Shown: positions 251 through 18,251 of the stretch, in pieces
Position numbering within the stretch: the stretch's first letter is position 1
Layout: the number at the start of each line of letters is the position of its first letter
Source of the DNA: Candidatus Versatilivorator sp.
Lineage (GTDB): Bacteria > Acidobacteriota > Terriglobia > Versatilivoradales > Versatilivoraceae
Direction of reading: 5' to 3'
Assembly: GCA_965207735.1 (NCBI GenBank)
Contig: OZ242296.1
Span: 5,056,001 to 5,120,000, forward strand
DNA length: 64,000 nucleotides
The notes under the pieces: generated by a model
Told to the model about the DNA's origin: nothing
Database searches by the model: none
What the model saw: the letters and a program-made list of their open reading frames with translations, nothing else
Made by a program: the position numbers and the translations under genes

Positions 251-1459
251 TTACCGAAGTGCAGAATCCAAGACATCCTTTACAAAACAAACAGCCTGGG
301 AAATTTCGTCATCTGTGGTGAAGCGGCCAAAGCTAAAGCGCACAGAAGCATCTGCTTGTTCTCCATTGAGTCCGATAGATCGCAGCACGTGAGACGGTTC
401 GGGAATGCCGGAGGTACATGCTGACCCTGTAGAAGCTGCGAGCTGCGGCTGAAGTGAGTTAAGTATGTCCTTAGCGCTAAAACCATCGAATTGCAGATTC
501 GCGTTCCCGGGATGGCGCATCTCTCCGACCGGTCCGTTGAGCGTAACAGGAACAGCCCCATCCGTTAGCAAGCGCACAAAGCAATCTCGTTGGCCCGCGA
601 CCCTCTCGCGTTCCGCTTGCAGTTCAGGACCGTGCAACATCTTAGCAGCGGCACCCATTCCGACGGCTAAAGCCAGCGGAACGGTGCCCGAACGCAACCC
701 CTCCTGTTGCCCGCCACCGTAGATCAACGGCTCGATCCGACTCAGGGCATCTCGACGAACGTAAAGGGCACCAATGCCTTGCGGACCGTACATCTTGTGG
801 GCCGATAAGCTCACAAGGTCTGCAAAGGTAGCGAGCTCACTCAAGTCCATCGCACAGGGGGCTTGAGCGGCGTCACAATGGAACAGGACACCATAGTGCG
901 CCAACAAGACAGAAATGGCAGGGATATCCTGAATCGTGCCGATTTCGTTGTTGACTGCCATTATTGATACCGCAAGGACCGAATCGTCAAGCTCCGCCCT
1001 GAGAAGGTTCAAGTCAACGAACCCATCATGGTCAACGGGGATTGTATCTATACTGATGCCATAGCGCTTGCCAATCACACTTGCCGCTGCGAGCACACAC
1101 TTGTGTTCAATTGTGCTGACTAGAATTCGACGACGAGACGGCGGAGCTTTGTGCGCCAAACCTAGAAGCGCAAAGTTGTTGGCCTCAGTCGCACCAGATG
1201 TGAAGACTATCTCATCCGGGTCAGCTCCGACGAGGGTTGCAACAGCGTCAGCCGCTTCTTGAACCGCTTTAGCCGCGCTCCAACCCACCGCGTGGTCGAC
1301 AGAGTGCGGGTTACCAAACGCTTCCTCCCAATAGGGCATCATGCGTTTCACGACTCTCGGATCCACCGGAGTCGTAGCTTGGTAGTCCGCATATACTTTT
1401 GCTGTAAGCCCTCTTTCCAAAAAACAGCCCCACTTTCCATAGACATTAGCTGTCCGCAA
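251..1459 (-). CDS. sspA: Cysteine desulfurase (IscS/DndA/SspA type), probable sulfur donor of the phosphorothioation locus
   Basis: Motifs YADYQATTP, TSGATEANN, PLP-lysine SAHK and catalytic STGSAC. TTG start preceded by AGGAGG at 7 nt. Divergent from the DUF4007-ATPase-PAPS reductase genes; the symbol comes from this context. Confidence 0.9.
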   Translation of the reverse strand: MRTANVYGKWGCFLERGLTAKVYADYQATTPVDPRVVKRMMPYWEEAFGNPHSVDHAVGWSAAKAVQEAADAVATLVGADPDEIVFTSGATEANNFALLGLAHKAPPSRRRILVSTIEHKCVLAAASVIGKRYGISIDTIPVDHDGFVDLNLLRAELDDSVLAVSIMAVNNEIGTIQDIPAISVLLAHYGVLFHCDAAQAPCAMDLSELATFADLVSLSAHKMYGPQGIGALYVRRDALSRIEPLIYGGGQQEGLRSGTVPLALAVGMGAAAKMLHGPELQAERERVAGQRDCFVRLLTDGAVPVTLNGPVGEMRHPGNANLQFDGFSAKDILNSLQPQLAASTGSACTSGIPEPSHVLRSIGLNGEQADASVRFSFGRFTTDDEISQAVCFVKDVLDSALR

Positions 1460-1463
1460 AGTG

Positions 1464-1501
1464 TAACCTCCTACTGGATGGATCGTCCAGTAGGAGAGTT
1501 A
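1464..1501. promoter_or_regulatory. Palindrome carrying the Shine-Dalgarno sequences of both divergent genes
   Basis: CTCCTACTGGA (1468-1478) and TCCAGTAGGAG (1486-1496) form a perfect 11-bp inverted repeat in a 44-bp intergenic gap. Each arm supplies AGGAG upstream of a TTG start. Confidence 0.7.
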
Positions 1502-1503
1502 AC

Positions 1504-2469
1504 TTGCCGCGGGGGCCGCTGTACCAAGACGGTTACCGACCGCAGTTTGCGGGACATGAGACCTTTCCGCTCAGATATGGGTGGCTGAAGAAGGCATTCG
1601 ACGCAGTACAAGCCACTGAGAGCGGTGACGACAACAAGAGTGTCTTCACCGGTGCCGACGCAATCGCAAAATTTGGCGTTGGCAAGAACATGGTGGCGTC
1701 AATGCGTCATTGGGCAATAGCCTCCGGGGTTCTAAGCGAGCCGGACGGTCGGCAGCGCATTGAAACGACATCTCTAGGCCGTCTTTTTTTTGGCAACGAC
1801 GGCATCGACCCATACATGGAGTCCCCTGATACGTCGTGGGTGATTCACTGGCAACTGAGTTCGCATGCGACTAAGACTACGTGGTTTTGGGCGTTCAACC
1901 ACTACCCTGCCTTGTCCTTCGAGCGCGACATGTTGGCACGCGGGATTGATAGACTTGCCCGCGACCTCGATTGGAGCCGTGCTTCCCCCGCAACCATAAG
2001 ACGGGACGTATCTTGCTTCGTTCGGACATACGTTCCGCAGCCGCTATCACGTCATGTGAGCTACGAAGACGCGCTCGAGTCACCACTGACCGAACTCGGT
2101 CTAATCAAGCCGGTTGGCAGGCGCGATGGATTTAGATTCGTACGTGGTCCGAAACCCTCGCTCGGCAATTTTGTTTTCTGCTACAGCGTAGCCGATTTCT
2201 GGAACGAGCATTTCCCCAACGTTAACACCTTGTCCTTTGAGGCGCTCGCTCACGAGCCCGGCTCGCCAGGAAGAGTGTTTCTGCTAGATGAGAACGCCTT
2301 GGTGGACAGACTCAGCAGCCTAGAAGCAACGACAGACGGCGTTTTCAGGTGGTCCGAGTCGGCCGGACTCAAACAGCTTATCCGAGAGCGTGAGTTGCGC
2401 ACCGAGGAAGTATTAAATCGGCTAGCAGCTACCTTCGATAGCAATCCACACGACAAGGCTTCTGTTTAA
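1504..2469 (+). CDS. sspB: DUF4007-family protein (SspB-like)
   Basis: N-terminal FAGHETFPLRYGWLKK and GVGKNMVASMRHW, plus ESPLTELGLI, are typical of DUF4007. Precedes an ATPase and a PAPS reductase. Confidence 0.85.
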   Translation: MPRGPLYQDGYRPQFAGHETFPLRYGWLKKAFDAVQATESGDDNKSVFTGADAIAKFGVGKNMVASMRHWAIASGVLSEPDGRQRIETTSLGRLFFGNDGIDPYMESPDTSWVIHWQLSSHATKTTWFWAFNHYPALSFERDMLARGIDRLARDLDWSRASPATIRRDVSCFVRTYVPQPLSRHVSYEDALESPLTELGLIKPVGRRDGFRFVRGPKPSLGNFVFCYSVADFWNEHFPNVNTLSFEALAHEPGSPGRVFLLDENALVDRLSSLEATTDGVFRWSESAGLKQLIRERELRTEEVLNRLAATFDSNPHDKASV

Positions 2470-5400
2470 TGTCCCTCACTGACCGAGTTCACATTGCCCG
2501 GCGATTCCAAAGGTCCATTCGCATCGACACGGACCTTAAGGAACGAGCAGCGATAGAGGGATTCGTCTGCCCTCAGTCTTCGGCCGTTCTGCTGGAGACG
2601 ATGGCCCATCACATTTCGCAATCGGGTCAAGGAGCTTTCACTTGGACGGGGCCTTACGGCAGCGGGAAGTCGAGTCTGGTAGTCGCGCTCAGTGCGGCAC
2701 TCAGTGGGAATACTCAGGTAAGGCGCCTCGCGGCACAGATTCTTGGTGAACAAACGGCAGAAGAGGTTTGGAAGGCGCTTCCACCTGGTGAAAAAGGCTG
2801 GTGTATTCTTCCCATCGTCGGGCGGCGGGAGCAACCTGCACAGGTAGTCGGCGAGGCCATCTGCAAGCAGAGGTATGTCCGAAACGGCTCAATGGGGCTC
2901 TGGACCGATCAGGTTGTGTTTGACGCTCTGACCAGAATTTCCAAACGTGCACCAAAACAGGGCGGTGGGCTCATCGTCTTCATCGATGAGATGGGAAAAT
3001 TCTTGGAGGGTGCAGCCTACGACGGAACGGACATCTACTTTTTCCAGCAACTCGCTGAGCTAGCTTCGCGTAGCAACGGACGCCTCATAGTGGTAGGCAT
3101 ACTGCACCAAGCGTTCGAAGAATATGCCCATCGCCTATCTCGGGAGATGCGCGATGAATGGGCCAAGATTCAAGGGCGGTTCATAGACCTGGCCGTCAAC
3201 ACTGGCTGGGAGGAACAACTTGATCTGTTGGGTCGCGCGATCGAGAGTGATCAAAAACCATCGCCTGCCTCCAACGGAATTGTGGAGCGTGTGGCTCGAC
3301 TGACTCGCCCACATGTAGATGCGAGGCTCCTAGCATCATGCTGGCCGCTACATCCAATTGTGGCTTGCTTGCTTGGCCCAATCTCACGCAGACGGTTTGG
3401 CCAAAACCAGCGAAGCATCTTCGGATTCTTGAACTCAACAGAGCCGCAGGGTTTCCGGGACTTCTTGCAAACAGCCGACGACGACAGTCTATATACGCCA
3501 GACAGACTTTGGGACTACCTGAAATTCAACCTCGAACCGTCGATCATGGCCTCGCCTGACGGCCATCGCTGGGCAATGGCCGTGGACGCACTCGACCGAT
3601 GCCAGGGGGCAGGAGGAGACGAATTCCATCTACGAATTCTGAAGACCATCGCACTTGTTGAGCTGTTCAAAGAGCGTTCCGGTCTAACATCAAGTCTGGA
3701 ACTACTCAGCCTTGTCCTGCCCAGTCAGAACACACTCAGCGTTGAAGAAGCAGTCAGCAAACTGGAGGAGTGGTCATTAGTCCTTCACCGTAAGTTCTCC
3801 AACTCCTACGGCGTCTTCGAGGGCAGTGACTTCGACATAGAACGGGCAATTGATCAAGCCTACGAGGGCGTCGGCGAGTTGGATTGGGGTCGGCTCACGC
3901 AGCTTGCCGGACTCCAACCAGTGATTGCTAAACGGCACTACCACAAGACTGGCGCGATCAGATGGTGCGATACGGCACTCGTCGCGCTTAGCGAACTCGA
4001 CAGGACGGTCACCGAATATGTCCCTAGCAACGGCGCGATAGGGGCATTTTTCCTAGCTTTACCAATCCAGGGAGACGCCCCGGATATGGTCGAGAGAATC
4101 GTCAAACGCGCCTCGTCTATCTCAACGGAATGGGAAGTCGTTGTGGGCGTACCTGAGCGTACCGGCTGGTCAATTACAAGTCTGGCGCGAGATCTGATGG
4201 CATTGGAAAAAGTCAGGGACGGCACACCGGAATTGCAGGGCGACCGGATTGCCCGTCGCGAAGTTCAGGCCCGGATTGCGGATTTGCAGGGTTATATAGA
4301 GAGTGAACTCGGCCGAGCATTAGACCAGGCATGGTGGCATCGAAGACAAGGAAGAGCGCAGCGTCTCGACAGTGTCGAACTGAATAGTTTGGCATCGGAC
4401 TTGGCCAATACCAGATTCCCTCACGCTCCGCACATCCACAACGAGTTGTTAAACCGCATGAAGCCTTCGACTAATGCAGTTGCAGCACGCAATGCGCTAC
4501 TGAAACATATGGCGCTCCATGAAGGGGAGAAGCGGCTTGGGATCAAGGGGTATCCACCCGAAGGGGGCCTGTTCGACTCACTGCTGCTTGCGACTGGTCT
4601 TTACGCTGAGACAGCGGGAGAATGGCGAATCGTCGATCCAAATTTCGCTGGCATGGATCCGAGCGGGCTGTCTCCAGCATGGCAAGCAGCTACGGATTAC
4701 CTGAAGCATAATTCCCACATAGCTGTCCCGGTGTCCGACATATACGATATCTGGAGGAAAGCGCCTTTCGGGATTAGAGAGGGTCTGCTGCCCTTGCTCG
4801 CTGTTGCATTCCTTCAGTCTCGTCGGGGAGACCTCGCCCTCTATCGGGAAGGTGTTTTTCAACCACGACTGACCGAGCTCGATGCGGAATACCTGACCAA
4901 CGACCCCTCCGACGTCCAGCTTCGATGGATGGAGATGTCGGGCATCTCTCGTCAACTTCTTTCTGACTTGGCTGAGATAGTACGGCACATGGATCCAACA
5001 AATGCTCTGAGCCATCTTGAACCCATTGACGTGGCTCGCGGTTTGGTCTCGATATACGACCGTCTCCCTGTCTGGGTCGGACGCACTCAACGTCTGTCGA
5101 ACGAAGCGAAACGAGTCAGGCAGCTATTCAAGCGAGCCAGTGACCCCAACAGGTTCATTTTTGACGACATCCCTCACCTCGTGTTGGGTCAAAAAGAGGA
5201 TTCAACGGTTGTTCCTGACGTAGCCGTCATGGTCAGGCAGGGTCTAACTGAACTTTCGGATGCGTACCCCAACATGTTGCGCCGGTTGAGGGAAACTCTG
5301 CTCGTAGAGCTAGGCGTTCCGAGCACGTCACCGTCGATGTTGGCAGAACTTCGCGCCAGAGCGGAGAATATTCGGCAGTTGAGCGGTAACCACAGACTTG

Positions 5401-5837
5401 AAGCGTTTATCCTGCGAATGTCGCAATACCAAGGAACTGACTCGGATATGGAGTCGCTTGCAAGCATGGCCGTAAACAAGCCTCCTCGACAGTGGACGGA
5501 CGCTGACATCGACCGCGCAGCCGTTGAGTTAGCAGACATGGCGCGCGACTTCACCAGACATGAGGCCTATGCACATGTCAAGGGAAGGCCGGACCATCGC
5601 CTTGCGATGGCTGTCGTGGTTGGGCTGGACGGCGAGCCGATTCACGACGATTTTGAGGTTACCGAGCGAGAGCAATCGCAGGTAGACGTCATCATCCAGC
5701 GGATGAGGCAAAGCTTGAGCGAAAGTGGCGAATCCGAACAAAACGTCATCTTGGCTGCACTCGCCAGAATTACAGCCGAGTACCTGGGATCTAGGGGAGA
5801 ATCAAGCGTCTCGGGGTCGAAAGAGGAGGCTTCGTGA
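2469..5837 (+). CDS. sspC: Large P-loop ATPase (SspC/BrxC-like)
   Basis: 1122 aa. RFQRSIRI start, Walker A GPYGSGKS, Walker B IVFIDEMGK, and FGQNQRSIFGFL. TAATG overlap with the upstream gene. Confidence 0.85.
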   Translation: MSLTDRVHIARRFQRSIRIDTDLKERAAIEGFVCPQSSAVLLETMAHHISQSGQGAFTWTGPYGSGKSSLVVALSAALSGNTQVRRLAAQILGEQTAEEVWKALPPGEKGWCILPIVGRREQPAQVVGEAICKQRYVRNGSMGLWTDQVVFDALTRISKRAPKQGGGLIVFIDEMGKFLEGAAYDGTDIYFFQQLAELASRSNGRLIVVGILHQAFEEYAHRLSREMRDEWAKIQGRFIDLAVNTGWEEQLDLLGRAIESDQKPSPASNGIVERVARLTRPHVDARLLASCWPLHPIVACLLGPISRRRFGQNQRSIFGFLNSTEPQGFRDFLQTADDDSLYTPDRLWDYLKFNLEPSIMASPDGHRWAMAVDALDRCQGAGGDEFHLRILKTIALVELFKERSGLTSSLELLSLVLPSQNTLSVEEAVSKLEEWSLVLHRKFSNSYGVFEGSDFDIERAIDQAYEGVGELDWGRLTQLAGLQPVIAKRHYHKTGAIRWCDTALVALSELDRTVTEYVPSNGAIGAFFLALPIQGDAPDMVERIVKRASSISTEWEVVVGVPERTGWSITSLARDLMALEKVRDGTPELQGDRIARREVQARIADLQGYIESELGRALDQAWWHRRQGRAQRLDSVELNSLASDLANTRFPHAPHIHNELLNRMKPSTNAVAARNALLKHMALHEGEKRLGIKGYPPEGGLFDSLLLATGLYAETAGEWRIVDPNFAGMDPSGLSPAWQAATDYLKHNSHIAVPVSDIYDIWRKAPFGIREGLLPLLAVAFLQSRRGDLALYREGVFQPRLTELDAEYLTNDPSDVQLRWMEMSGISRQLLSDLAEIVRHMDPTNALSHLEPIDVARGLVSIYDRLPVWVGRTQRLSNEAKRVRQLFKRASDPNRFIFDDIPHLVLGQKEDSTVVPDVAVMVRQGLTELSDAYPNMLRRLRETLLVELGVPSTSPSMLAELRARAENIRQLSGNHRLEAFILRMSQYQGTDSDMESLASMAVNKPPRQWTDADIDRAAVELADMARDFTRHEAYAHVKGRPDHRLAMAVVVGLDGEPIHDDFEVTEREQSQVDVIIQRMRQSLSESGESEQNVILAALARITAEYLGSRGESSVSGSKEEAS

Positions 5838-6676
5838 TGTCTTCCGGCTCTAAACACCACGTTCTAGGACTGTCAGGGGGACGCGACAGCGCTGCACTGG
5901 CAATCTACATGCGAGAGATCCATCCTGACCTGGAGGTGAAATATTTTTTCACTGACACCGGCAAAGAGTTGCCGGAGGTATACGAGTTTTTGGTCAAGCT
6001 AGAAGGCTTCCTGGGTAAGCCTATCCTTCGATTGAACCCAGACCGGGACTTCGACTTCTGGTTAAAGCAATACAACAACTTTCTGCCTTCGGCTCAGACG
6101 CGGTGGTGTACGAGGCAATTGAAGCTGAGACCATTTGAGAAGTGGGTGCGCCCAATGCTCGAAGCGGGAGACACCGTCTACAGCTACGTAGCCATCCGTG
6201 CTGACGAAGAGTACCGGGAGGGGTATTCTTCCAAACACGACCTACTAATAGTCAAACTTCCGCTGAAGGATGCTGGAATTGACAAGTCCGGTGTTATGGA
6301 GATATTGGAAGGCACGGGGATCGGCCTGCCGGAATATTACGAGTGGCGCACACGTAGCGGTTGTACATTCTGCTTCTTCCAACAAAAGATCGAGTGGGTG
6401 CGCTTAATGGACCGACACCCTGGATACTTCGAGGAGGCCAAGAAGTACGAGAAGAACGCGCTCGAACACGGTTCTCCCTTCACCTGGAGCCAGGGGGAGT
6501 CACTCGATGCGTTATCGAGGCCAGAGCGCATTGCACAGATCAGGAAAGACCACGAGGATCGTTTAAAGCGGATGCGAATCAAGAGACAGGTCAACCCCCT
6601 CCGCCCAGATGCCGAACCACTAGATATTGACGACCTGTACGGTCAGGCCAAGGTCTGTCTTGCCTGCCACAAGTGA
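5834..6676 (+). CDS. sspD: PAPS-reductase-family PP-loop protein (SspD/DndC-like)
   Basis: PP-loop LSGGRDS, RWCT, RSGCTFCFFQ and C-terminal CLACHK. GTGA overlap with the ATPase stop codon. Confidence 0.88.
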   Translation: MMSSGSKHHVLGLSGGRDSAALAIYMREIHPDLEVKYFFTDTGKELPEVYEFLVKLEGFLGKPILRLNPDRDFDFWLKQYNNFLPSAQTRWCTRQLKLRPFEKWVRPMLEAGDTVYSYVAIRADEEYREGYSSKHDLLIVKLPLKDAGIDKSGVMEILEGTGIGLPEYYEWRTRSGCTFCFFQQKIEWVRLMDRHPGYFEEAKKYEKNALEHGSPFTWSQGESLDALSRPERIAQIRKDHEDRLKRMRIKRQVNPLRPDAEPLDIDDLYGQAKVCLACHK

Positions 6677-6924
6677 AGGGATTTCCGATAGCTAGTGGGG
6701 ATACCGTCCAAACTGCAATGTCGAACGCTAAACCGTCTCGCCTCAAGGTTGCCCTTGCGGATGCAAATCCTCTTTACATCCTTCCGAAGGAACCAATAGC
6801 CGCGCAGGTACTCATCCCCGCGTTGATGACCACGGCATCTTTGGACGTAATGATGGGATACTTCTCCAGCTCGTCCTTTGCTGAAATCGCCCCCGGTCTA
6901 GCGACATTCCTGCGGAACACTAAG
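6673..6924 (+). pseudogene. Fragment 1 (N-terminus) of an IS-interrupted PLD nuclease / SF2 helicase (PbeA-like)
   Basis: Contains MMGYFSSSS, typical of the PLD-domain N-terminus. Ends at target duplication ACTAAG and joins fragment 2 in frame (RNTK|APLRM). Confidence 0.85.
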
Positions 6925-8853
6925 CCGAAGTTCCTGACCCACCGACAAGATAACTCCTTTATCTTCAATCATCAATCAGGAATCTCAGGTTGTCTTGCCT
7001 GGGAACATCCTGATGAGCTCGAAGGCCCTTTGCTGTAGCGGGGTCGGCTCGGTCAATCGCTGGACTCGCGGACCATCGGGTTCGGAGGGCAATCGGCACT
7101 GGTGGCGGGCCCGCGTCGCCATCTGCGCCATCAACGTCTCCAGGCTCTGCAGCGGCAAGCCGTCCTCGGTGAGGCGTTTGCTCTTCTTCCGTTTGGCGGA
7201 GTCCGACGGCTGGGCCGCCAGCACCGGGTCTCGCCGTGCCCGTTCCGCTTCCAACTCCTCGTCATCGAACAGCAACGGAGCCAGGGCCAGCCGCAGATGC
7301 CACTGAACGTAATAGGCCAGCAGGCACAGGAACAGATGAGCCCGCACCCGGCTCTCCACCCGATGACGGATGGGGCGGATGTGCAGGTCGACGGTCTTGA
7401 GGGAGCGGAAGGCCCGCTCCACCCGCGTCAGGTCCTTGTAGCGGCGCACCACCGCGGCTGTTGGCAGGCGATCGGCTGGCTCGCTGGTCCTCAGCATGTA
7501 GAACCCGTCCAGTTGCGCCTCCCGGATGATGGCGTCGGTGCGCCGTTCATAGTGGAAGGACCCGTCTGCGATCTGGGTCCGGAAGTGTTTGGCCACCTGG
7601 AAGCGGTTCTTGACCCGGCCGACTTTCTCGGCGATCTCGGTCGCCGACAAGGGCGTGCGGGTCCGTCTGGCCACCTGGCGGGCGATTCCGGCCAGCGCCT
7701 CCTCGGTGGCTGTCAGCAAAGCCTCCCGCTTCCGCCGCCGATGCTCGGCCAGCAGCGGGTTGTGGCAGACGATGAGCCTCTCGCCCGGATAGTCCGGGCT
7801 GCGGACTTCGGCCAGATGACGCTCGTCGAACAGGGAGAGCTGAACCGCCTCGCTCTCCACCAGACGGCGTATCTGGTGGTGGCGCAGGGCTGAGACCCAC
7901 CCCACTCCCGGATGACGCTTCAGATGGCTGATCTGCGTCTCGGTCAGCAGCCCGCGGTCCCCCACCAGCACCACCCGCTCCAGACCAAACCGACCCCGCA
8001 CCTTCTCCACCTGATCCCCCACCGTGGTCGGATCCCCCGTGTTGCCGGCATAGGCCTGCACCGACAGCGGCCGCCCCATCTGGTCGGCCAGCACCCCGTA
8101 GACCACCATGGGCCGGTCCCGCCTGCCGTCCCGGTTGTGGCCGAACTGCATCAGCGAGCAGGTCTGGCCTTCGTAGTAACTGCTGCTGACGTCATAGAGC
8201 ACCGCATCCCCTTCCGCCAGGTGCCGCTTGGCCAGCTTGCGCTCAATCCGGTCCTGACGCTCCAGCAACCAGTCCATGGCCTCATAGAGATCGTCCTCGT
8301 CGGTGTCCTCAAGGGACAGTTCCTCACCCAACGTGGTGGTGTGCCAAAGACGGGTGGTGGCCAGCTTGGAGGCCGGATAGAGCAGACGCTGCAGGATCAT
8401 GGCCAAGACCCGGTCCCGTTGGGGAGAGGGTCGGGAATCGATCAGCGCCGGCAGCTTCAGCTGCCGCACCACTTCCAGCAGCAACTCGACGTGGCCATGA
8501 GGCAGGGAGCGTTCGATGGCGAAGAGTTGGTCGGGATGGACCAGGGGTTCGTTCTTGAGCACGCGCCGGAGGCGCTCGATCTTGTCCTTGGGCCAATGGG
8601 AGAGATTGGCCAGGGTGCGTTTATGGACCTTTTTACCCTCACGGCGGCCTTCGCGCAGGAGGATGGCAGGGGGAGAGTTGCGGTTGGGGACGGTTTCGAC
8701 GTACATGGGACTACGATATCACATACAACTATCATGTCAAGATAAATGCTAATCATATACATGGGAACAACACTCCACACGCCTCAATCCTCTTCCCCAA
8801 GAAAACAAATGGCTTAAGGCGATTTTTTGGGTGTAAAATGGGAGGAACTTCGG
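6925..8853 (-). mobile_element. IS1634-family insertion sequence
   Basis: Terminal inverted repeats CCGAAGTTCCT (6925-6935) and AGGAACTTCGG (8843-8853). 6-bp target duplication ACTAAG at 6919-6924 and 8854-8859. Confidence 0.92.
6985..8706 (-). CDS. IS1634-family DDE transposase
   Basis: 573 aa, starting MYVETVPNRNSPPAILLRE. Motifs LYDVSSSYYEG, VGDRG, YKDLTRVERAFR and RVRAHLFLCLLAY. Confidence 0.92.
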   Translation of the reverse strand: MYVETVPNRNSPPAILLREGRREGKKVHKRTLANLSHWPKDKIERLRRVLKNEPLVHPDQLFAIERSLPHGHVELLLEVVRQLKLPALIDSRPSPQRDRVLAMILQRLLYPASKLATTRLWHTTTLGEELSLEDTDEDDLYEAMDWLLERQDRIERKLAKRHLAEGDAVLYDVSSSYYEGQTCSLMQFGHNRDGRRDRPMVVYGVLADQMGRPLSVQAYAGNTGDPTTVGDQVEKVRGRFGLERVVLVGDRGLLTETQISHLKRHPGVGWVSALRHHQIRRLVESEAVQLSLFDERHLAEVRSPDYPGERLIVCHNPLLAEHRRRKREALLTATEEALAGIARQVARRTRTPLSATEIAEKVGRVKNRFQVAKHFRTQIADGSFHYERRTDAIIREAQLDGFYMLRTSEPADRLPTAAVVRRYKDLTRVERAFRSLKTVDLHIRPIRHRVESRVRAHLFLCLLAYYVQWHLRLALAPLLFDDEELEAERARRDPVLAAQPSDSAKRKKSKRLTEDGLPLQSLETLMAQMATRARHQCRLPSEPDGPRVQRLTEPTPLQQRAFELIRMFPGKTT

Positions 8854-8859
8854 ACTAAG

Positions 8860-10015
8860 GCCCCCCTACGCATGGTCGTTAGTCCGTTCCTCACGGACGA
8901 CGACTTTGATGCGTTGACACAGGACGATGATCGATTAGTTTCTCTTGCGCAGCAAATTCTAATCGATGACGTGCCAGGAGAAGATGCTATTGTCCGTCAC
9001 ACACTTGAATGCCTAGCCTACCTCATCACGCAGAAACGGCTCATTCTGAAGTTCGCGGTGATGCGGCGGGCAATGTTCCACCCTAAGGTGTGGTTATTTG
9101 AGGACAGTGTGAATCGGGTAGCCCTTCACGGTTCGACGAACCTAACGAAGACCGCTCTTTCCCGCAATTGGGAACAGCTCACCCTGTCCCGTGACTGGAA
9201 GGGCGAGGAGGCGATCTTTCATGTCGAACGACTACGACATGAGTTCGATGATCTGTGGTCAGGTGGAGATGAAGATTGCTGCGTCCTTCCGCTGCCCGAT
9301 GCCGTCACTAGAAGGGTAATTGAGAGATACAAGACGAATGGCATGCCGGATGAAGACGTCCTTGGTGCGCTCTGGAGAAAGGCCCATGGTGTGGAAGTGC
9401 CTATGGCGCTACGCGACAGGCCACGGACGGCGGCACTGAAGATCCCGCGATGCCTTGTTTACGAGACAGGAGACTTTGCCCACCAAGGCATGGCCGTTAG
9501 AGCCTGGGAGGCATCCGGCCGCAGAGGCATTCTCGAAATGGCCACCGGCGCTGGCAAAACGATCACGTCGATGATCTGCGCCACAAGGTTGCAAAATGAA
9601 ATCGGGAATCTGCTCGTCGTCGTATCTGCTCCCTACCGCCCCTTGATCGAGCAATGGTGCGAGGAAATACTCGCATTTGGTGTCCGCCCAATTAATCTCA
9701 CCGCATTTAGTGGACTGGCGGCGCGCAACAGGGAAATCAAGCAGGTAGGCCGCCGACTGTATATGGGTTATTCACGCGCCGAGGTGCTGGTTGTCAGCAA
9801 CGACACGTTGTGCACAGAGCAGTTCATTCGATCCGTCTCAGAAGTCGGAGCTAACAAACTGCTGATTGGCGACGAGTGTCACAACCTTGGTGCAGCGTCT
9901 TTTACCGCAAACCCACCGGAGGAATTCAACTACCGGCTCGGCCTTTCCGCCACACCCATCCGCCAGTATGACGAAGAAGGAACGGAAGCTCTCATCGCTT
10001 TTTTCGGTGACATTT
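8860..10015 (+). pseudogene. Fragment 2 of the PLD nuclease / SF2 helicase (HKD motif and helicase motifs I-III)
   Basis: FHPKVWLFED...GSTN (HKD-like), MATGAGKT, DECH and LSAT. Bounded by the two IS elements. Confidence 0.9.
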
Positions 10016-11502
10016 GAGCCTTTTGCAAAATTCGGAATCGGGCATGACATTGGGCTGGCAACAGTGATGTTCCGGCGGTGACTACCCAGCTGCAAAGACC
10101 CTTTTGAAGGAAAAAGCCCGAATCTGATGGCCGGATGGCCAGCGGTCGCCGGACGCAGGCACAGCTTACCCTCTCCCGGCCTTGAGGCGGGCGAACCTGC
10201 TGTGCGGTTGGGGGTGGCAACCCGGTCTTCAGAGCGTCAGGCGCATCAACTGATCCACCGTCAGGGCCAGAATGCCGAACATCAGGTGGCACCTCACCTT
10301 GTCGGGGCCGCGAACCCTCACCTGCCTCCCGCCAAACTCCTCCTTGAGCCGTCCGTTGACCCGCTCCACCGTCGAGCGTTCCCGGTAGCGCCGCGCCTCG
10401 GGAGTCACTTGGCCGATACAGCGCCGGGCCAGTGCCTCCCGCTTCCGCTCGGCTTTCAAGGTAGCTCTTCGGCGGGGGTTGACGTCAATAATCGGCACAT
10501 GCCCCAGCTTCTCACTGAAGGCCCGGATCTCCGGCGCATCGTAGGCGCTGTCCATCAAGTCGTAGAGACTCTCGACCCGCCTTGCCGTCAGCGTCGCCAG
10601 CGGAATGGCTGCCTGAGAGTCATGCACCGAGGCCGAGGTCAGCAGACAACTGACCGGAATCCCGCCGTCAATGGCGTCGAGGTGTAGCTTGTAGCCGGTC
10701 CAGCTCTCCTGATGCCCCTTGGCGTTGCGCTTGACGCCGATGTCGCAGGCCTTGGGCAACTCCTTCAACATTTCCTCCAGCGTCATCGACCCCTGCCGCT
10801 CCAGCCGGCTCAACCGCTTGGGCCGTCGCTCGCCCTTCGGCGGCCGGCCCCGCCGGCGTTTCCGCTTGGCCTCCGGCGCAGCCTTGGCCGCTGGCTTTTC
10901 CCGTCCCGCAATCGCCGTCGAGTCCCTCGACACATGCCCCGCCAAGTGGCCCTTCAGCGTCTCCTCCAGCAATGCCTCGTGCAAACGCCCCGGCAGGTCG
11001 CTCTCAGCGAATTCCGCAAAGGCCCGCGAGAAGGTCGACTCGCTCGGTACCTCCCACGCCCTCTCCCAGCCGCACAGCCGCCGCAGCCTCCCCTCACTCC
11101 TCAGCCGCTCCACCAATCCCCGCGTGGTCGCCACCTCCAGCATCGACTTCGCCAGATAGGCTCGCGCCAGCACTGCCCGATCCTCCAGCGGCCGGCCACG
11201 CCAGCCCCGACTGTAAGGCAGCAACTCCTCCACCCGCACCAACTCCAATACCTGCACCAGCCGCTGGTAACGCTCTCCCAGAGGCCCCAAAACTTCCTCC
11301 AGCAGGGGAAACAGCTCTCGTTGAAACCGGAACCAGTGTCGTGATAGGGTTTCCCTAAGGGGCAAGTTCCACCTCCGTTCATCATGTGGTTCAGACACCT
11401 TCATGATACAACAGACAGTGGTCTTGCCCCTCCTTCCACCTGCCCTCCTTGATCTTTCCCCACGTGAAAATTCCCGCTATCTGCGAATTTTGCAAAAGGC
11501 TC
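10016..11502 (-). mobile_element. Insertion sequence, DDE type (IS5/IS1182-like; family uncertain)
   Basis: Perfect 19-bp terminal inverted repeats GAGCCTTTTGCAAAATTCG (10016-10034 and 11484-11502). 4-bp target duplication ATTT at 10012-10015 and 11503-11506. Confidence 0.92.
10229..11404 (-). CDS. DDE transposase (DUF772-like N-terminus)
   Basis: 391 aa. Motifs VPSESTFSRAF, SRDSTAI, GYKLHL, SASVHDSQ, MDSAYD and YRERSTVERVNGRLK. Confidence 0.9.
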   Translation of the reverse strand: MKVSEPHDERRWNLPLRETLSRHWFRFQRELFPLLEEVLGPLGERYQRLVQVLELVRVEELLPYSRGWRGRPLEDRAVLARAYLAKSMLEVATTRGLVERLRSEGRLRRLCGWERAWEVPSESTFSRAFAEFAESDLPGRLHEALLEETLKGHLAGHVSRDSTAIAGREKPAAKAAPEAKRKRRRGRPPKGERRPKRLSRLERQGSMTLEEMLKELPKACDIGVKRNAKGHQESWTGYKLHLDAIDGGIPVSCLLTSASVHDSQAAIPLATLTARRVESLYDLMDSAYDAPEIRAFSEKLGHVPIIDVNPRRRATLKAERKREALARRCIGQVTPEARRYRERSTVERVNGRLKEEFGGRQVRVRGPDKVRCHLMFGILALTVDQLMRLTL

Positions 11503-11506
11503 ATTT

Positions 11507-12306
11507 GTTTCTCTTTTACTCTTGAAGAGGCGATCGGGAAGTGCCTTACCAACTATGACTACCACGTGCACCCTGTCGAGCTTAATATTGGAGAGATGCA
11601 GGAGTGGAGTGATCTTACAGACCAAATAGCGAGCCAAGCCTGGAAACTGGAATCCGGAAAGAGCAACGACCCCTATCTTGAAAACCTATTGCGCAAGCGC
11701 CGCCTAGTGCTGGAGACCGCAAGCACCAAACTTGACATGCTATCCCGTTTATTGGACACCGAGGGGCCACGCGATCTCCAATACACTCTAATCTATGCCA
11801 CTGACAAGAAGCCGGAGCAACTCAAAGAGGTGAACCGTTTGCTGGCGAGCCGACGTGTGTTGTTCCATCAGCTCACCCAAGAAGAAACAAATAGTCGCCA
11901 GCAAACCAATCGCATACTCTCGGCGTTCCAGGAAGGAGTGACTCAGGTGCTAACCGCCAAGCGTGTGCTGGACGAAGGTGTCAACATTCCGCAAATAAAG
12001 CTCGCCTTTATCCTTGCGAGCACTACGGTAAAGAGGCAGTGGGTGCAGCGCCGGGGGCGTTTGCTGCGCACATGCAAAGCCATCGGCAAAACTCACGCCG
12101 TGATTCACGATTTCGTCGTATTGCCGCCGGGCACATCCTCATCAAAGGTTGCCCAGCTTGATAAGGATGCACGCAATCTAGTACGTTCGGAATTAAATCG
12201 TGTCTGGGAATTTGCGCGACTCAGCCGTAACGGCCCACTACCTGGTGGGCCGTATGAAGCCGTGCAACACCTTCAGAGGCTGGCAAATGAAAGGGTTGTA
12301 CACTGA
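11507..12306 (+). pseudogene. Fragment 3 (helicase C-terminal domain) of the PLD nuclease / SF2 helicase
   Basis: LDEGVNIP (motif V) and QRRGRLLR (motif VI). Joins fragment 2 in frame after IS removal (FFGDI|CFSFTLEE). Confidence 0.9.
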
Positions 12307-12545
12307 TGGCATACAACGACGATAGAATTCTTTTTGTACTTATCGGTGAGCTTGAAAAAGTGCCGGAAAGGTGCGAAGGCTATCGGGAAAGATTGAGACA
12401 CCTACTCCGTGACGTACTGCGCTACGAGGAGAAGCATGCACTGTCCAGGAGAACCATAGTCAAGGACATTGCCAACCTAGTGAATAAGGTTGGGATGAAT
12501 TTGTACAAGTCCCCACCGAAAGCTGACGAGCAAGAAGGCCGATGA
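12306..12545 (+). CDS. Small helical protein, PbeB-like by position
   Basis: 79 aa. Overlaps the helicase stop (TGATG) and the ATPase start (ATGA). No recognisable motif. Confidence 0.75.
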   Translation: MAYNDDRILFVLIGELEKVPERCEGYRERLRHLLRDVLRYEEKHALSRRTIVKDIANLVNKVGMNLYKSPPKADEQEGR

Positions 12546-14656
12546 AGTTACTACACGCTCATATCGAGAGATTCAGACTGCTGAAGGATATTGCGATTGA
12601 GTTCTCCACGCACAGCGATCGTAATTTGACGGTTATTCGAGCCGCGAACGAGAGCGGCAAGACGACTCTGTTAACCGCATTACAGTGGGGGCTATTTGGA
12701 GACGAGGCGTTGCCGAACGATAAGGCTGAATTTCGCCTCAGCCCTATTGACACATCCTCTGGTGCAAGGGTGCCCGTTACAGTCTCTGTTGAAATCGACT
12801 ACGAAATAAGCAAGGGCAACGATGTCCGTAAGTACCGATTAATACGATTTGCTGGAGAGATCGCGAGCGGTGCAAAGTGGAAGCGCGATAGCACTAACAT
12901 CAAACTGTTTCGCCTAGGAGCGAACGGCGCCGAATCCCTTCGCAATCCAGAAGCCCATATCCATTCCCATTTGCCGAAGGAGTTGCGGGAGCTTTTTTTC
13001 ACTGACGGAGATCGTGCTCTGAGCTTCATTGAAGGCAGCAAGGGCGATCAAATGGATAGGGTTGAGGGTGCAATCCGCTCTCAGCTAGGCATTAGTGTCG
13101 TCGAAGATGCCCTCAACCACGCCCGCAAGGTCAGAACCGATCTAAATCAAAAGCTTCGCAAGAACGCTGGAAATCGGCAGGAACTTCAAACCGTGTCCGA
13201 CCGGCTAACGGCGTTGCATGAACAGATGCCTAGCCTTGAAAATGAGATCCGTAAGGCTAAGAAAGCCCGCCTCCGGCTCGAAGACCTGGAGGAGGATGCT
13301 GATCGAAAGCTTTCTGATGCCCTGCGTAAAGGGAACAGGGAAGAATTGGAAAAGCAGCGTCAATTAGTCAAACGCAGCCGACTGTCTGCAGAAAGGGATG
13401 CAACCCAGGCTGCTCGCGATCATGCGGATTTATTCAAGAGCGAACTTATTGGCAAGCAGTTGCTTGTCGGCCCATTCGCAAAGGCCAAAGCAGTGCTAGA
13501 CGGTCTGCACAAGCAGGGCAAGATACCGAACCAGACAATACCAGTTCTTGAAGACCGGCTAAACCAGCCTACCTGCATTTGCGGCGAAACACTTGAACCA
13601 AGTGAATTGAACGGCCGGCTACGCCGTACACACATCCAGCATTTGATCGAAGAGAGCCGCAATGCTGATGTGATCCAAGAGAAAGTCACAGCGCTCTATT
13701 ACGGGGCGCAGGAACTCTTGAGGCCAGTGAAGGAGCGCAAATGGTCCGATGAGTATAGCGATGTTTTTGGACGTCGCCAGAGAGCGTCAACTCGGCGCGC
13801 GGAACTCGGCGGGGCGGAGGCTGCTATAGAGGCGAAAATCAAGGCACTGCCGGATGTGGATATCCAACAGCTACGCACCGCCCGAAACCGTTATCGCGAC
13901 CAGTCCAAGGAGTTCCAGAGAAAAGAAATTCGCCTAAACGCACAATTAGAGACCACGCAGCGCGACATCAAGCTCAACGAAACAAAGAGAGAAAAACTCT
14001 CCCAACACGACGAGAAGAGCAGGCAGATTGCAGCAGAGTTTAAGGTTGCCGATGATTTGCTGCAAGTGCTTTCCAACGCGATTGAAACCATGAAGACGAG
14101 AGACCTTAAGAAGGTCAGCGATCGCATGAATGTTCTGTTTCTCGACATGATTGGCTCTGATCGGGCACAAAGGTCGATCATCACCCGCGCATCTATCACA
14201 CCTGAATTTCATATAGTCGTTTTCGGTCGAAACGACCATCCACTTGATCCTTCTCAGGACCTAAATGGCGCATCACGTCGTGCATTGACGATCGCTTTCA
14301 TTCTGGCTCTCGCACGTGTCAGTAAGGTGAAAGCACCCAACGTGATCGACACGCCTCTCGGAATGATGAGCGGTTACGTTAAACAAGCGGTTCTTCAACT
14401 CGCGTGCCAACAAAGCTCACAGTTAATTTTGTTTCTGACCCACTCAGAGATCGCCGGGTGTGAGGACATATTAGACGAGCGGGCCGGGCGCATTTATACG
14501 CTAACGAACCCTGCCCATTTCCCAAAGATTCTCGTTCATGACCCCGGGGTGGACGATGCGCAGGTATTATTGTGTAGCTGCAGCCACAGAACAACCTGTC
14601 AGGTGTGTGAACGGCGAGAGGTGGCAGACCTCAATGCTGAACAATTGAAGGCATAG
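12542..14656 (+). CDS. Rad50/SMC-like ABC ATPase (DndD/PbeC-like)
   Basis: Walker A AANESGKTT, long coiled coil with central CICG hook, signature variant LNGASRR, Walker B VIDTPLG, H-loop LTHSE, and C-terminal CSC..CQVC. Confidence 0.88.
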   Translation: MKLLHAHIERFRLLKDIAIEFSTHSDRNLTVIRAANESGKTTLLTALQWGLFGDEALPNDKAEFRLSPIDTSSGARVPVTVSVEIDYEISKGNDVRKYRLIRFAGEIASGAKWKRDSTNIKLFRLGANGAESLRNPEAHIHSHLPKELRELFFTDGDRALSFIEGSKGDQMDRVEGAIRSQLGISVVEDALNHARKVRTDLNQKLRKNAGNRQELQTVSDRLTALHEQMPSLENEIRKAKKARLRLEDLEEDADRKLSDALRKGNREELEKQRQLVKRSRLSAERDATQAARDHADLFKSELIGKQLLVGPFAKAKAVLDGLHKQGKIPNQTIPVLEDRLNQPTCICGETLEPSELNGRLRRTHIQHLIEESRNADVIQEKVTALYYGAQELLRPVKERKWSDEYSDVFGRRQRASTRRAELGGAEAAIEAKIKALPDVDIQQLRTARNRYRDQSKEFQRKEIRLNAQLETTQRDIKLNETKREKLSQHDEKSRQIAAEFKVADDLLQVLSNAIETMKTRDLKKVSDRMNVLFLDMIGSDRAQRSIITRASITPEFHIVVFGRNDHPLDPSQDLNGASRRALTIAFILALARVSKVKAPNVIDTPLGMMSGYVKQAVLQLACQQSSQLILFLTHSEIAGCEDILDERAGRIYTLTNPAHFPKILVHDPGVDDAQVLLCSCSHRTTCQVCERREVADLNAEQLKA

Positions 14657-14658
14657 CG

Positions 14659-15117
14659 ATGTCTATAAATGCATTTGCGACATCTGATATTGAACTACCT
14701 GAGAAGTATCGGAAATACTTCCACGCTTATTGCCTTACGCGCACGGAAGGGTCTCAAAACAACCCCGAGGACAGTCCCTTCCCGAGAATGGTCGATATGT
14801 GGTTTCTAGCCCTTTGCATTGCCGTCAAGGAGGATCTGAAGCCGGAGTTCAATTCCACGGGGAAGACCTATAAGGCCATCCCGGGGGTCGTTTTCGGAAG
14901 CGATAGTTGGCGGTCTAACGCACTCATGCTTCTCGCCATCGCTCACACCGGTGACGTTGAGATCACCGACAAGCCGCATGAAATGATGAGAATTGCTAAT
15001 GGCTACGCATTGGCTGGATTGCCACGTCTCATAGGAATACTAAATGAACGGGAAGATGATACCGCGATTGACTATCTATCAGATATTGTCAAAGAGATGA
15101 CAACGGCTGGACCGTGA
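14659..15117 (+). CDS. Small phosphorothioation-associated protein (PbeD/DndE-like)
   Basis: 152 aa, 2 nt after the ATPase. PFPRMVDMWFLAL and IANGYALAGL resemble dnd-associated small proteins (recognised by eye). Confidence 0.65.
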   Translation: MSINAFATSDIELPEKYRKYFHAYCLTRTEGSQNNPEDSPFPRMVDMWFLALCIAVKEDLKPEFNSTGKTYKAIPGVVFGSDSWRSNALMLLAIAHTGDVEITDKPHEMMRIANGYALAGLPRLIGILNEREDDTAIDYLSDIVKEMTTAGP

Positions 15118-15980
15118 CGTAGTCACCGGATTATTCCCTTTCCAGGAAAGATTGACAGAGCGGCATTAACGAAAAACGATCTGTCAGGAGGTCTTTGGGG
15201 CGAGTCTTGTGGGATGAATTGAAGTGTCCTGCGGGAAGACTTTCCGGTCGGCTAAAAAAACAACAGGGAAAAGCAGGAGACCACAAGTGGCCTAAAAGGC
15301 CGAGAGAGGCAAGCCTAGGGGATGCACACCACCCGATATCTCCGATCCGCAGCAAGGGCAGCTTGCCACTCCACTTGATGGCCTCGGACTCAGGGTTGAT
15401 ACTCGGCTGACCTGTCCGCCAGTAACCATTCGGCAGAGCCGTGGAAGACGGTCGGTCGGCATCCTCCCCAAGCGATCAAGCCACATTGCGTCGGTGTCGC
15501 CGCTGAGCCACCAATGCAGCGGCTCGACCACCCCCCGGACAGGCGAGCCGCGAAACCCCGCTAAACAGCTGGCGAACCGACCATATCGTTCCGACACCGC
15601 GGGTCCCATCTCCGCTGTCTGCCCCCGGTCCCGATAGAGGTGGAAGGGGGATGCTTCGTCGGTTGCTCGGTCGGCGTAGAGGATAAACCTGCAGGAGGTC
15701 AAGCCCACGGCTTGACCGAACAGTTACCGTCCATGAACGTCCTGGATGGTCCAATGGATTCCCATATAGAAAGAGGGATTTATTGAGGGGAATGCAGCTG
15801 GCATATCCTGGCTAAGTCCTTTATAAGTAATAGGTTACAGTTGATTAATTGCAGTCCGTGCAGCGGCCTCTGGTCCTATTAATCCTGTCTCTTTCCAAAA
15901 CGCAAACAGCTGGCTGTTTCTCCTCTGAATGACCCGTCCCGTCGTCGGGGACGGGGGGTCGCCTGACCATCGTGCCGTCT

Positions 15981-16008
15981 GATACTGTTATGATATCATT
16001 ATGATATT
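15981..16008. promoter_or_regulatory. Probable antitoxin operator/promoter
   Basis: Palindrome ATGATATCAT (15990-15999) with repeated TGATA half-sites, just upstream of the GGAGG RBS (16021-16025) of an RHH antitoxin. Confidence 0.5.
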
Positions 16009-16030
16009 AAACTTGCCGAAGGAGGTCGAT

Positions 16031-16273
16031 ATGCCAGACGTAGCGCTTCGTGGAATTCCCGATTCCCTGCACCGGGAACTCAAGTCATCTGCGAGTCGGA
16101 ACCACCGCAGCCTCAATGGGGAGATCCTCGCGAGGTTAACGGAGTCGGTTCGCCCTGAACCGGTAGACCCGCAGGACCTCCTGAATCGCATCCGGCAGCG
16201 AAACGAGAAACTTGGACCGGTCGATCTCAGTGAGGCCACGCTACGTGAGATGCGGAACTCCGGACGACCATGA
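16031..16273 (+). CDS. FitA/Arc-like ribbon-helix-helix antitoxin
   Basis: MPDVALRGIPDSLHRELKSSASRNHRSLNGEI. GGAGG RBS upstream of ATG 16031; ATGA overlap with the PIN gene. Confidence 0.85.
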   Translation: MPDVALRGIPDSLHRELKSSASRNHRSLNGEILARLTESVRPEPVDPQDLLNRIRQRNEKLGPVDLSEATLREMRNSGRP

Positions 16274-16671
16274 TTGTAGTTGACACGAATGTGATGGTTC
16301 GTCTGGTAGTGGGCGGAGCAGACGGCATCGAGGCGGCCATGTTGTTCGAGCGGGAGACTGAGTGGGCGGCCCCCAGCATCCTCCTGAGTGAGTTGCAAAA
16401 CGTCCTGGTCGGCTTCGTGCGCCGGGGCGCGGTAACCTCGGAGCAGGCCAAAGCGATGAGCGATGACGCTGCTGTCGTTCTGGGACACCGCATCGCCAGC
16501 GTGCCTGGAAACCAGGTGATTGATGTCGCGCTGGAGTGCGGCCTGACCGCCTACGATGCCGAGTTCGTCGCGCTCGCTCGAACCCTGGGCGTTGGGTTGG
16601 CTACTCTGGACAACGCGGTCCTGCACGGCGCCGCAGACGTGGCAGTGTCGTTGCGGACTCTGGTGCGCTAG
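16270..16671 (+). CDS. vapC: VapC/PIN-domain toxin
   Basis: MIVVDTNV, LTAYDAEFVALA and LATLD. The TAG stop lies in the CTAG target site of the adjacent IS. Confidence 0.9.
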   Translation: MIVVDTNVMVRLVVGGADGIEAAMLFERETEWAAPSILLSELQNVLVGFVRRGAVTSEQAKAMSDDAAVVLGHRIASVPGNQVIDVALECGLTAYDAEFVALARTLGVGLATLDNAVLHGAADVAVSLRTLVR

Positions 16672-18251
16672 GAGTCTGCGCCGCAGGACGATTTCGGAAA
16701 GTTCAAGAGCGAGAGGCTACTGCGCAATGCCGGTTCCAAGGAGTGCTTGGGAGCCGCTTGGGCGTTGATAGAGTCTCAAGCACCCTGTGGGCTCCCACAA
16801 TGGGCGGTTGAGGACCTCCGTGGTCCTGGGTATTGGGTGGAAATCCCTTGCTTCAGGCTGCCATCAGCGCACTCATCCTCTTGATGTTGAGGGCCAGACA
16901 CACCAAGTCCCACTCCCCCTGCACTGACTGCAAGCCCCGCAGACTGAACCGTCGGAATCCCAGCCCCTCCTTGATCCACCCATGAGGGGCTTCGGCAATC
17001 CACTTCCTCCGCCGATACTCCACCTGACCGGCTAGGCTGGCCAGCTTCTTCCTCATACGACTCTTGGCCGGATGCTTCCTGGGATCGATCTCTACCGCCC
17101 GCTTCCCCTCGCGCCCCAGCGCAACATAACCGTCCACTCCTCTCTCTTCCAGGGCCTGCAAGTCCGCCTCATTGCAGTAGCCCGCATCCGCCAGCACCTG
17201 TTTCGGTATCTCCTGGAAGCTCTCCTCCACCTCCTCCAGCAACTCCATCATCTGCCCCTGATCGCTCGCCTGCGCCGTTACCTCGGTGGCCACAATGATC
17301 TGGTGCTCTCCGTCCACCGCCACCTGCGCGTTGTAGCACTGCTGGAACCCCTCGGTGGAAGTCTTCATGATCCGGCTTTCCGGATCGGTGAAATTGCTCT
17401 GCGCCTTCTCCTCCGGTTCTCCGTAGGCCCGCTTGTAGGGCCGTCGTGCTTTCGGGTTACGGTCCTGTCCCGGTTTGCGCCCCCGCTCCTCATCAGCCTC
17501 CCGCTGGGCCGCCTCCAGCCGCTGCTTGGCCGCCTCGATCGCCGCCAGCCGGTCCTCCCGCCGACGCAACTCCTCGGGCAACTCGTCCCCACGCCGGTCT
17601 TCCCCGTAGCGCTCATCTTCCTCCCGGTCCTCCCGCCGCGCCTGCTTCAACAACTCTTCGATCTCTTCCCTCAGTTGCCGCTCCCGCTCCCGCATCCGAC
17701 CGTAGCTCATCGCCTTGCGCCGGCTCGCGTTCGCCCGCACCTTCGTCCCGTCGATCCCCAATCGCCCCAACCCCACCATCCCCATCTCCCGCGCCAAACG
17801 CACCACTTGCACCAACAGCCGCTTGAAGTCCTTCAAGTGCCGCCGGCGAAACTCGCTCAGCGTCCGATGCTGCGGAAAGTTCCCCGCCGCCAGCATCCGA
17901 AACGCCACGTCCTCCTCCAACTTCCTGGCTATCTTGCGCGACGAGAACACCCCCGTCGCATAGGCGTAGATCAATACCTTCACCATCATCCCCGGCTCAT
18001 AGGGCGAGTTGCGCCTCCCGTCCTCTTCATACCGCCGGTAGAACGCTCCCAACTCCAGCCCATCCACCAACTCGCTCACCTGATGCGCCAAGTGTCCTTC
18101 CGGTACCCACTCCCGCAGGTCCGGCGGCAGCATCAACAACTGCTTCGGTTGATACGGGCGAAACCTCGTCCCCATTCACCACCTCCCATGATGTCTCTAA
18201 GCCCGTTATTCTATCATTCAGCCCTGCCTGGGTTTTCTGCGGCGCAGACTC
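16672..18251 (-). mobile_element. IS1182-family insertion sequence
   Basis: 15-bp terminal inverted repeats GAGTCTGCGCCGCAG (16672-16686 and 18237-18251). CTAG on both sides (16668-16671 and 18252-18255). Confidence 0.92.
16853..18175 (-). CDS. IS1182-family transposase
   Basis: 440 aa. Motifs YAYATGVFSSRKI, IDGTKVRANAS, TDPESRIM, YNAQVAVD and LADAGY. Confidence 0.92.
   Translation of the reverse strand: MGTRFRPYQPKQLLMLPPDLREWVPEGHLAHQVSELVDGLELGAFYRRYEEDGRRNSPYEPGMMVKVLIYAYATGVFSSRKIARKLEEDVAFRMLAAGNFPQHRTLSEFRRRHLKDFKRLLVQVVRLAREMGMVGLGRLGIDGTKVRANASRRKAMSYGRMRERERQLREEIEELLKQARREDREEDERYGEDRRGDELPEELRRREDRLAAIEAAKQRLEAAQREADEERGRKPGQDRNPKARRPYKRAYGEPEEKAQSNFTDPESRIMKTSTEGFQQCYNAQVAVDGEHQIIVATEVTAQASDQGQMMELLEEVEESFQEIPKQVLADAGYCNEADLQALEERGVDGYVALGREGKRAVEIDPRKHPAKSRMRKKLASLAGQVEYRRRKWIAEAPHGWIKEGLGFRRFSLRGLQSVQGEWDLVCLALNIKRMSALMAA

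Follow-up and report, generated by a model that had tools for sequence, protein, structure and literature searches.

Which effector works with a DNA phosphorothioation writer of the Ssp type when its usual partners are missing? This question is raised by a locus at positions 251 to 15117 of a 64,000-nucleotide stretch from Candidatus Versatilivorator sp. (contig OZ242296.1; the whole stretch is called the window here), in which genes of the single-strand phosphorothioation system SspABCD run directly into genes of the Pbe type. Both halves belong to systems that already have names; what appears to be new is their pairing. Full-text literature searches found no published account of Ssp with Pbe, though survey supplements may list the pairing. 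The name Pbe does not appear in the main texts of the paper on SspFGH, a 2026 BREX survey and a paper on BREX type 4, and a 2025 review treats the Ssp and Pbe branches separately and notes that clusters are exchangeable. The results obtained here indicate that Ssp and Pbe likely form one defence system, and show that their pairing recurs across many bacterial groups.

Ssp and Pbe genes in one locus

The locus consists of a divergent sspA followed by seven co-oriented genes (1504-15117), whose stop and start codons overlap or nearly touch along the whole run. Its features are as follows.

251..1459, minus strand: sspA, cysteine desulfurase, divergent (PADLOC SspA 9e-127; SAHK and GSAC motifs)
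1504..2469, plus strand: sspB, DUF4007 (PADLOC SspB 4e-106; Pfam PF13182)
2469..5837, plus strand: sspC, ATPase (PADLOC SspC E = 0 versus BrxC 9e-109; Walker A and B present)
5834..6676, plus strand: sspD, PAPS-reductase-like (PADLOC SspD 2e-134); cassettes are exchanged at its stop codon
6673..6924, plus strand: pbeA piece 1 (PbeA model positions 11-59; frame continuity)
6925..8853, minus strand: IS1634 within pbeA (transposase 6985-8706; 6-bp duplication ACTAAG)
8854..10016, plus strand: pbeA piece 2 (PbeA model positions 59-431; PLDc_2, ResIII)
10017..11501, minus strand: IS1182/IS5-like element within pbeA (transposase 10229-11404; 6-bp duplication CATTTG)
11502..12306, plus strand: pbeA piece 3, helicase C-lobe with QRRGR (PbeA model positions 432-665; Helicase_C)
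12306..12545, plus strand: orf79, small protein of 79 amino acids (aa) in the pbeB position (between pbeA and pbeC in 32 aligned related loci)
12542..14656, plus strand: pbeC, CxC-hook ABC ATPase (PADLOC PbeC 3e-50 versus DndD 4e-35)
14659..15117, plus strand: pbeD, DndE cognate of 152 aa (TIGR04062 in relatives, profile match, fold)

The sspB/sspC junction reads TAATG at 2469, sspC/sspD and sspD/pbeA both read GTGA (5834-5837 and 6673-6676), pbeA and orf79 meet in TGATG at 12306, orf79 and pbeC in ATGA at 12542-12545, and a spacer of 2 nucleotides lies between pbeC and the start of pbeD at 14659. These genes, their order and their overlapping or near-adjacent junctions had been claimed in a preliminary description of the window, and re-reading the sequence bore them all out.

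The first four genes had been taken for SspABCD, and their best PADLOC matches were indeed SspA to SspD. Their catalytic motifs are intact (SAHK and GSAC; SGGRDS and the cysteine motifs; Walker A/B), while the real start of sspA may sit about 20 codons inside the annotated frame. Homologous DUF4007, PAPS-reductase and BrxC-type ATPase genes are described for BREX type 4 (PMC12914056, PMC12839542). In contrast to that system, the Ssp models outscored the Brx models here and the downstream genes are Pbe rather than pglZ/brxL, for which the search, made in the locus only, gave no match among the locus proteins.

The downstream genes proved to be homologues of Pbe/CxC systems, as proposed, with PADLOC matches to PbeA and PbeC and a PbeD of predicted DndE fold; the conserved 79-aa gene agrees with PbeB in size and position and is a putative PbeB. 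PbeC is 704 aa long, with a C345/C347 hook and a C-terminal tail of the pattern CxC-x5-CxxC (C678, C680, C686 and C689). All six cysteines were invariant in 57 aligned rows, and each of the 120 closest homologues shows the tail pattern. The predicted fold is of the Rad50/SMC type, with no DndD entry among the fold matches listed. That the ATPase might be DndD itself was rejected, since the PbeC model scores better and the protein falls outside the DndD clade. Neither orf79 nor the 152-aa protein had a significant match in PADLOC, NCBIfam or Pfam, and orf79 shares 22-27% identity with small genes from two plasmid loci that are less closely related. For the 152-aa protein, 11 of 25 aligned relatives matched TIGR04062, the window protein itself giving no direct hidden Markov model (HMM) match, and a profile comparison paired it, at 97.7%, with a protein annotated as phosphorothioation-associated protein 4. 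Its best two structural matches among 48,161 chains were both DndE (7x4e, Z 8.5; 5wtu, Z 7.2); the root-mean-square deviation to 7x4e was 3.6 over 112 aligned residues, which is modest alone and consistent with the profile match. Foldseek and sequence searches of the PDB found nothing significant, with DndE 7x4e at E 6.7. By relatives, profile and modelled fold, the 152-aa gene is thus assigned as PbeD with a predicted DndE fold.

The three pbeA pieces tile one PADLOC PbeA model end to end. When both elements are removed, they form one 735-aa frame with no stop, in which HPK, DECH and QRRGR are present; piece 2 carries a single HxK phospholipase-D-type (PLD) nuclease motif (HPK) and the helicase N-lobe (DECH). 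The PADLOC matches of the pieces, together with the motifs of this rebuilt frame, identify pbeA as an HKD-SF2 gene.

Recurrence, exchange and a marked clade

The window genome is a single contig of 100% completeness, and profile searches over its whole length detected no SspE, SspF/G, DndB or DndC. SspH gave a partial FtsK-domain match only, outside the locus, and PbeC was the sole responder to DndD. The preliminary description saw no SspE, SspFGH or DndFGH gene in the window, and across the whole genome SspE, SspF/G and Dnd genes are likewise not detectable. The locus resembles SspABCD-SspE/SspFGH (Gao et al. 2022, PMC9646914; Wang et al. 2021, PMC8092258) in its writer, its divergent sspA and the place of the probable effector beside sspD, but here that probable effector is an ABC ATPase with a nuclease-helicase, and the genome lacks SspE and SspF/G. 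It also resembles the DndCDEA-PbeABCD system described for Haloterrigena jeotgali A29 (Xiong et al. 2019, PMC6459918) in gene order, in a PbeA with PLD, ResIII and helicase-C domains, in a small gene at the PbeB position (66 aa in A29, 79 aa in the window), in an AAA PbeC and a 152-aa PbeD, and in weak co-evolution with the writer. It differs from that system in its Ssp writer, the lack of dnd genes in the genome, the four-cysteine PbeC tail and the broken pbeA.

For the recurrence of the pairing, we used the best 80 of 533 sspD loci found in GTDB (labelled L###), in 77-80 of which the SspABCD-type cluster is kept. They span Acidobacteriota, Chloroflexota, Proteobacteria and others. PbeC lay within 10 kb of sspD in 30 of the 80; a cassette of helicase, MORC and PLD genes was found in 23, SspE in 6 and SspFGH in 3. 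When 50 of the 78 source genomes were searched whole, PbeC matches appeared in 27. The match lies no more than 14 kb from the ssp locus in 25 of these, by a second ssp locus in one and 98 kb off in another. In the reverse direction, sspD is present in 13 of the 16 metagenome loci recovered by way of PbeA (the set includes two duplicate pairs, and two of the three loci without sspD lie on contigs shorter than 5 kb). By comparison, 1,600 genomes drawn by taxon, regardless of Ssp, gave 21 Pbe matches, a lower bound because at most two candidates were scored per genome. The synteny of sspBCD with Pbe, proposed as a check on the pairing, is therefore present in many genomes and far above background, and because the same neighbourhood recurs so often, the locus is more than a chance assembly. 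The two modules stand in at least four arrangements (direct fusion, with an intervening gene, convergent, and with Pbe upstream), and sspD and pbeA are translationally coupled in the window and several relatives.

Some of these loci hold further recurrent elements. A sigma-70 region 4 protein of 550-985 aa (15 of 80 loci, e.g. L011:10902-13232) stands beside Pbe in 13 of the 15, often between sspD and pbeA. One Pseudanabaena strain carries a Pbe module and an sspD relative on separate plasmids (L129, NZ_CP112875.1, and H44, NZ_CP112879.1), possibly a pairing in trans.

The point at which Pbe is joined to the writer could be located precisely. Two congeneric loci (L001 and L002) show 89% DNA identity from sspA to sspD, and this identity ends at 6674-6677, at the sspD stop codon. 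After sspD, one congener has a DGQHR/DndB-like pair; the other has a Pbe with just 42-50% identity to that of the window, less than the 64-82% seen for the Pbe of distant loci. Writers whose Pbe are 42-50% identical share an SspD of 93% identity. Rank correlations of identity matrices over 27 loci were 0.69-0.91 within modules (PbeC-PbeA 0.91) and -0.07 to 0.24 between them (PbeC-SspD 0.18; SspB versus the Pbe proteins -0.07 to 0.09), the latter similar to the DndCD-PbeAC correlation of 0.107 reported in PMC6459918. Mapped on the SspC tree, the Pbe label switches 18 times or more. Pbe is therefore a swappable cassette behind the Ssp writer. Ssp genes coupled to Pbe, as first described, are indeed what the locus holds, but a fixed hybrid they are not.

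No locus holds both Pbe and the helicase-MORC-PLD cassette (of the 80, 30 have Pbe, 23 the cassette and 27 neither), and 11 of 13 genomes with this cassette, searched whole, lack any PbeC match. Part of this exclusion is competition for one slot. The cassette is a trio straight after sspD (L004-L079, e.g. L125:10694-15119), made of an SF2 helicase of about 545 aa, a MORC/GHKL ATPase of about 630 aa and a single-HxK PLD protein of about 310 aa, and it matched no named system. The comparison does not support derivation of the trio from a split PbeA, with the helicases 23% identical and a PLD match over only 31 columns (probability 44%). Other genes recur there as well: a family-less protein of 150-190 aa with a DGQHR/DndB-like gene, often after sspD (24 of 80 loci; L054:10885-11394, L059:11373-12662), an 812-aa protein behind sspD in 7 loci with no Pfam, PADLOC or NCBIfam match (L024:10994-13432), and a 627-aa family-less protein and a double-GHKL protein, also behind sspD (L024:15973-17856, L080:12740-15145).

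The four-cysteine tail goes with linkage to ssp. In a 39-row PbeC tree built with the tail trimmed, the 19 tail-bearing rows formed one clade (SH-like approximate likelihood ratio test, SH-aLRT, 100), 16 of them beside ssp, 3 without it and none beside dnd. A PbeA tree repeated the split at 100/100; a long-branch warning applies to the base of either tree. No Dnd-linked, haloarchaeal-plasmid or cyanobacterial PbeC sampled has the tail. Among the taxon-drawn Pbe, 5 of the 7 in the tail clade are beside ssp, none beside dnd and 2 beside neither; the other 14 comprise 9 beside dnd, 1 beside ssp and 4 beside neither (Fisher 0.002 against the tail clade). In these counts, G941 is truncated before the tail and was assigned to the clade by identity, and G1384 was counted as neither although a weak, DndC-sized match lies about 10 kb away; the locus L111 was labelled dnd-linked, as dnd genes lie next to it. 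The two tail-clade orphans differ: in the genome of the intact one, sspD lies at a distance of 260 kb and DndC is absent, and the genome of the truncated one has neither sspD nor DndC. Judged from these alignments and trees, the cysteine tail marks an Ssp-linked PbeC clade. A second Ssp-Pbe layout, with sspD followed by the ATPase, a DndE-like gene and the HKD-helicase, is tail-less (L066, L089, L126, L147). Because the tail-less Pbe of these four loci are interleaved with Dnd-linked relatives in the tree, the pairing likely arose more than once.

Interruption of pbeA and surroundings of the locus

The two elements within pbeA belong to families with many near-identical copies in the genome (16 for IS1634, 43 for the IS1182/IS5-like element). 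Contigs of the sequencing runs X3, X5 and X7, from three other studies, skip IS1634 in pbeA, and those of X5 and X7 also skip the second element. Contigs of run X1 run into the ends of both elements with no skip. An assembly artefact was thus ruled out by contigs with the insertions in X1 and without them in other runs. The insertions are real, recent and missing from related strains, and pbeA is intact in relatives. The nuclease-helicase gene being split, the cassette in this genome is likely inactive or crippled. The eight-gene locus first described therefore stands in its gene content, but probably not as a functional copy, since pbeA is interrupted twice, a point not spelled out earlier. 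Decay of Pbe is recurrent: pbeA of a haloarchaeal plasmid is apparently shortened by IS66 (L128:8763-11656), and pbeC is split in L035 and L059.

Downstream of pbeD, a toxin-antitoxin pair with ribbon-helix-helix and PIN domains lies at 16001-16671, and dense multicopy repeats occupy 15233-15957 and 16667-19371. The latter include IS1182 at 16853-18175 and an element of about 0.9-1.1 kb at 18252-19371 with dozens of genomic copies, in a genome with strong insertion-sequence expansion. Two DUF1501 and PSD1/PSCyt cytochrome gene pairs lie at 19715-24352 and 56980-61320. A promoter and terminator scan showed no excess over shuffled sequence, and a search for tRNA genes in the upstream region as well as in nine related loci gave a single one, at L091.

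A possible coupling through the DNA mark

How might the two modules work together? As reported for H. jeotgali, Pbe blocks viral replication and requires phosphorothioate on the host DNA rather than the writer proteins; it is harmless without the mark, virus carrying the mark escapes, and less than tenfold protection remains without pbeA (PMC6459918). SspE likewise requires host phosphorothioate to act (PMC9646914; PMC8092258). By analogy, Pbe is probably licensed by Ssp-marked DNA, which it would spare. SspA to SspD, given their family membership and intact motifs, would place single-strand phosphorothioates on host DNA. PbeC, a Rad50-like zinc-hook ABC ATPase, and PbeD, with its predicted DndE fold, may then scan DNA. 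Marks on host DNA would license the complex and marked DNA would be spared, as in haloarchaeal Dnd-Pbe. On unmarked invader DNA, the PbeA helicase and HKD nuclease would stall replication or nick. Writer and effector would be coupled by the DNA mark with no co-evolved protein contact, which may be why effectors can be exchanged at the sspD stop codon. If the behaviour in H. jeotgali carries over, it would explain why the modules are tightly linked yet do not co-evolve, why cassettes are freely exchanged and why broken or orphan ones are tolerated.

Several points weigh against this reading. The characterised Pbe uses the Dnd GATC mark, so that reading of an Ssp mark here is an analogy, and the H. 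jeotgali proteins are absent from the trees. The sample is centred on relatives of the window, many of one habitat kind, and kin are not independent. Fifty of the 80 ssp loci have no nearby PbeC, and among 61 plasmid sspD records only one has a close PbeC: CP099618.1, from the cultured Sphingomonadaceae strain OTU29MARTA1, with a complete eight-gene operon and intact motifs. One of the five taxon-drawn tail-clade Ssp-Pbe genomes also has dndC elsewhere. Pbe and SspE occur together in four loci, and Pbe is therefore not simply a substitute for SspE. Finally, the lack of co-variation between writer and effector fits independence as well as it fits coupling through DNA.

Independence is indeed what some authors favour for related systems. 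The ABC ATPase-DndE-HKD/SF2 systems of Rakesh et al. (2024, PMC10853773) share with this locus the CxC hook, the DndE cognate, the HKD-SF2 fusion and a small protein; unlike it, they are linked to Dnd, to cytosine methylases or to none, and the main-text passages give no Ssp link. As they occur alone or with methylases, that study doubts that CxC systems are phosphorothioation restriction partners and argues for their standing alone. Pbe would then be a mark-independent defence riding a mobile-island hot spot behind sspD, either attacking directly or causing abortive infection once a phage trigger acts on PbeB. Such a passenger would suit the free swapping of cassettes after sspD, the absence of co-variation, the many other cargo genes in that slot, an integrase gene about 2-3 kb upstream of the window and the low G+C of the locus (52-55% versus 62%). 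We nevertheless consider it unlikely, given that the tail clade was encountered next to ssp or in genomes that carry ssp, rather than next to dnd or other islands, that linkage holds across the different gene arrangements, the convergent one included, and that the sole Pbe tested requires phosphorothioate (PMC6459918).

Two further readings accept the partnership and place it elsewhere than in a shared mark. Pbe may rely on direct contact with Ssp proteins, for example SspB or SspC loading PbeC, and both the translational coupling of sspD with pbeA and a clade-specific tail that could serve as a docking site would agree with this. Yet nearly identical SspD proteins accompany widely diverged Pbe, SspB and Pbe identities are uncorrelated, and a catalytic mutant excluded contact in the Dnd-Pbe study (PMC6459918), so that we give contact very little credence. 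Alternatively, PbeC and PbeD could form a second targeting arm that takes the SspA/SspD chemistry to a different motif, yielding two marks. Since SspA and SspD correspond to DndA and DndC, and PbeC and PbeD are paralogues of DndD and DndE, the locus holds a full DndACDE equivalent. This arm is hardly probable, as PbeC co-varies with PbeA and not with SspD, and the literature passages compared report no such activity.

Licensing of Pbe by Ssp-marked DNA is thus the reading that we prefer. On a more specific form of it we are evenly divided: a dedicated Pbe subtype, with a zinc-binding-tail CxC ATPase, may read Ssp single-strand marks and be the commonest effector of this Ssp lineage, and the sspD-stop slot may be a plug-in site for Pbe, the helicase-MORC-PLD trio, SspE and SspFGH, coupled via the DNA mark alone. 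As reported, 83.9% of 2,678 sspBCD have no SspE or SspFGH effector (Wang et al. 2021, PMC8092258), and 165 of 553 pbeAC have no modification partner (PMC6459918). If true, the pairing would fill part of both gaps. It would also move the Pbe mechanism, studied solely in a haloarchaeon, to a cultured proteobacterium whose plasmid (CP099618.1) holds an unbroken copy, and it would raise the question of whether one effector family can read Dnd as well as Ssp marks. For predicting the writer used by a Pbe, the cysteine tail would then offer a sequence marker.

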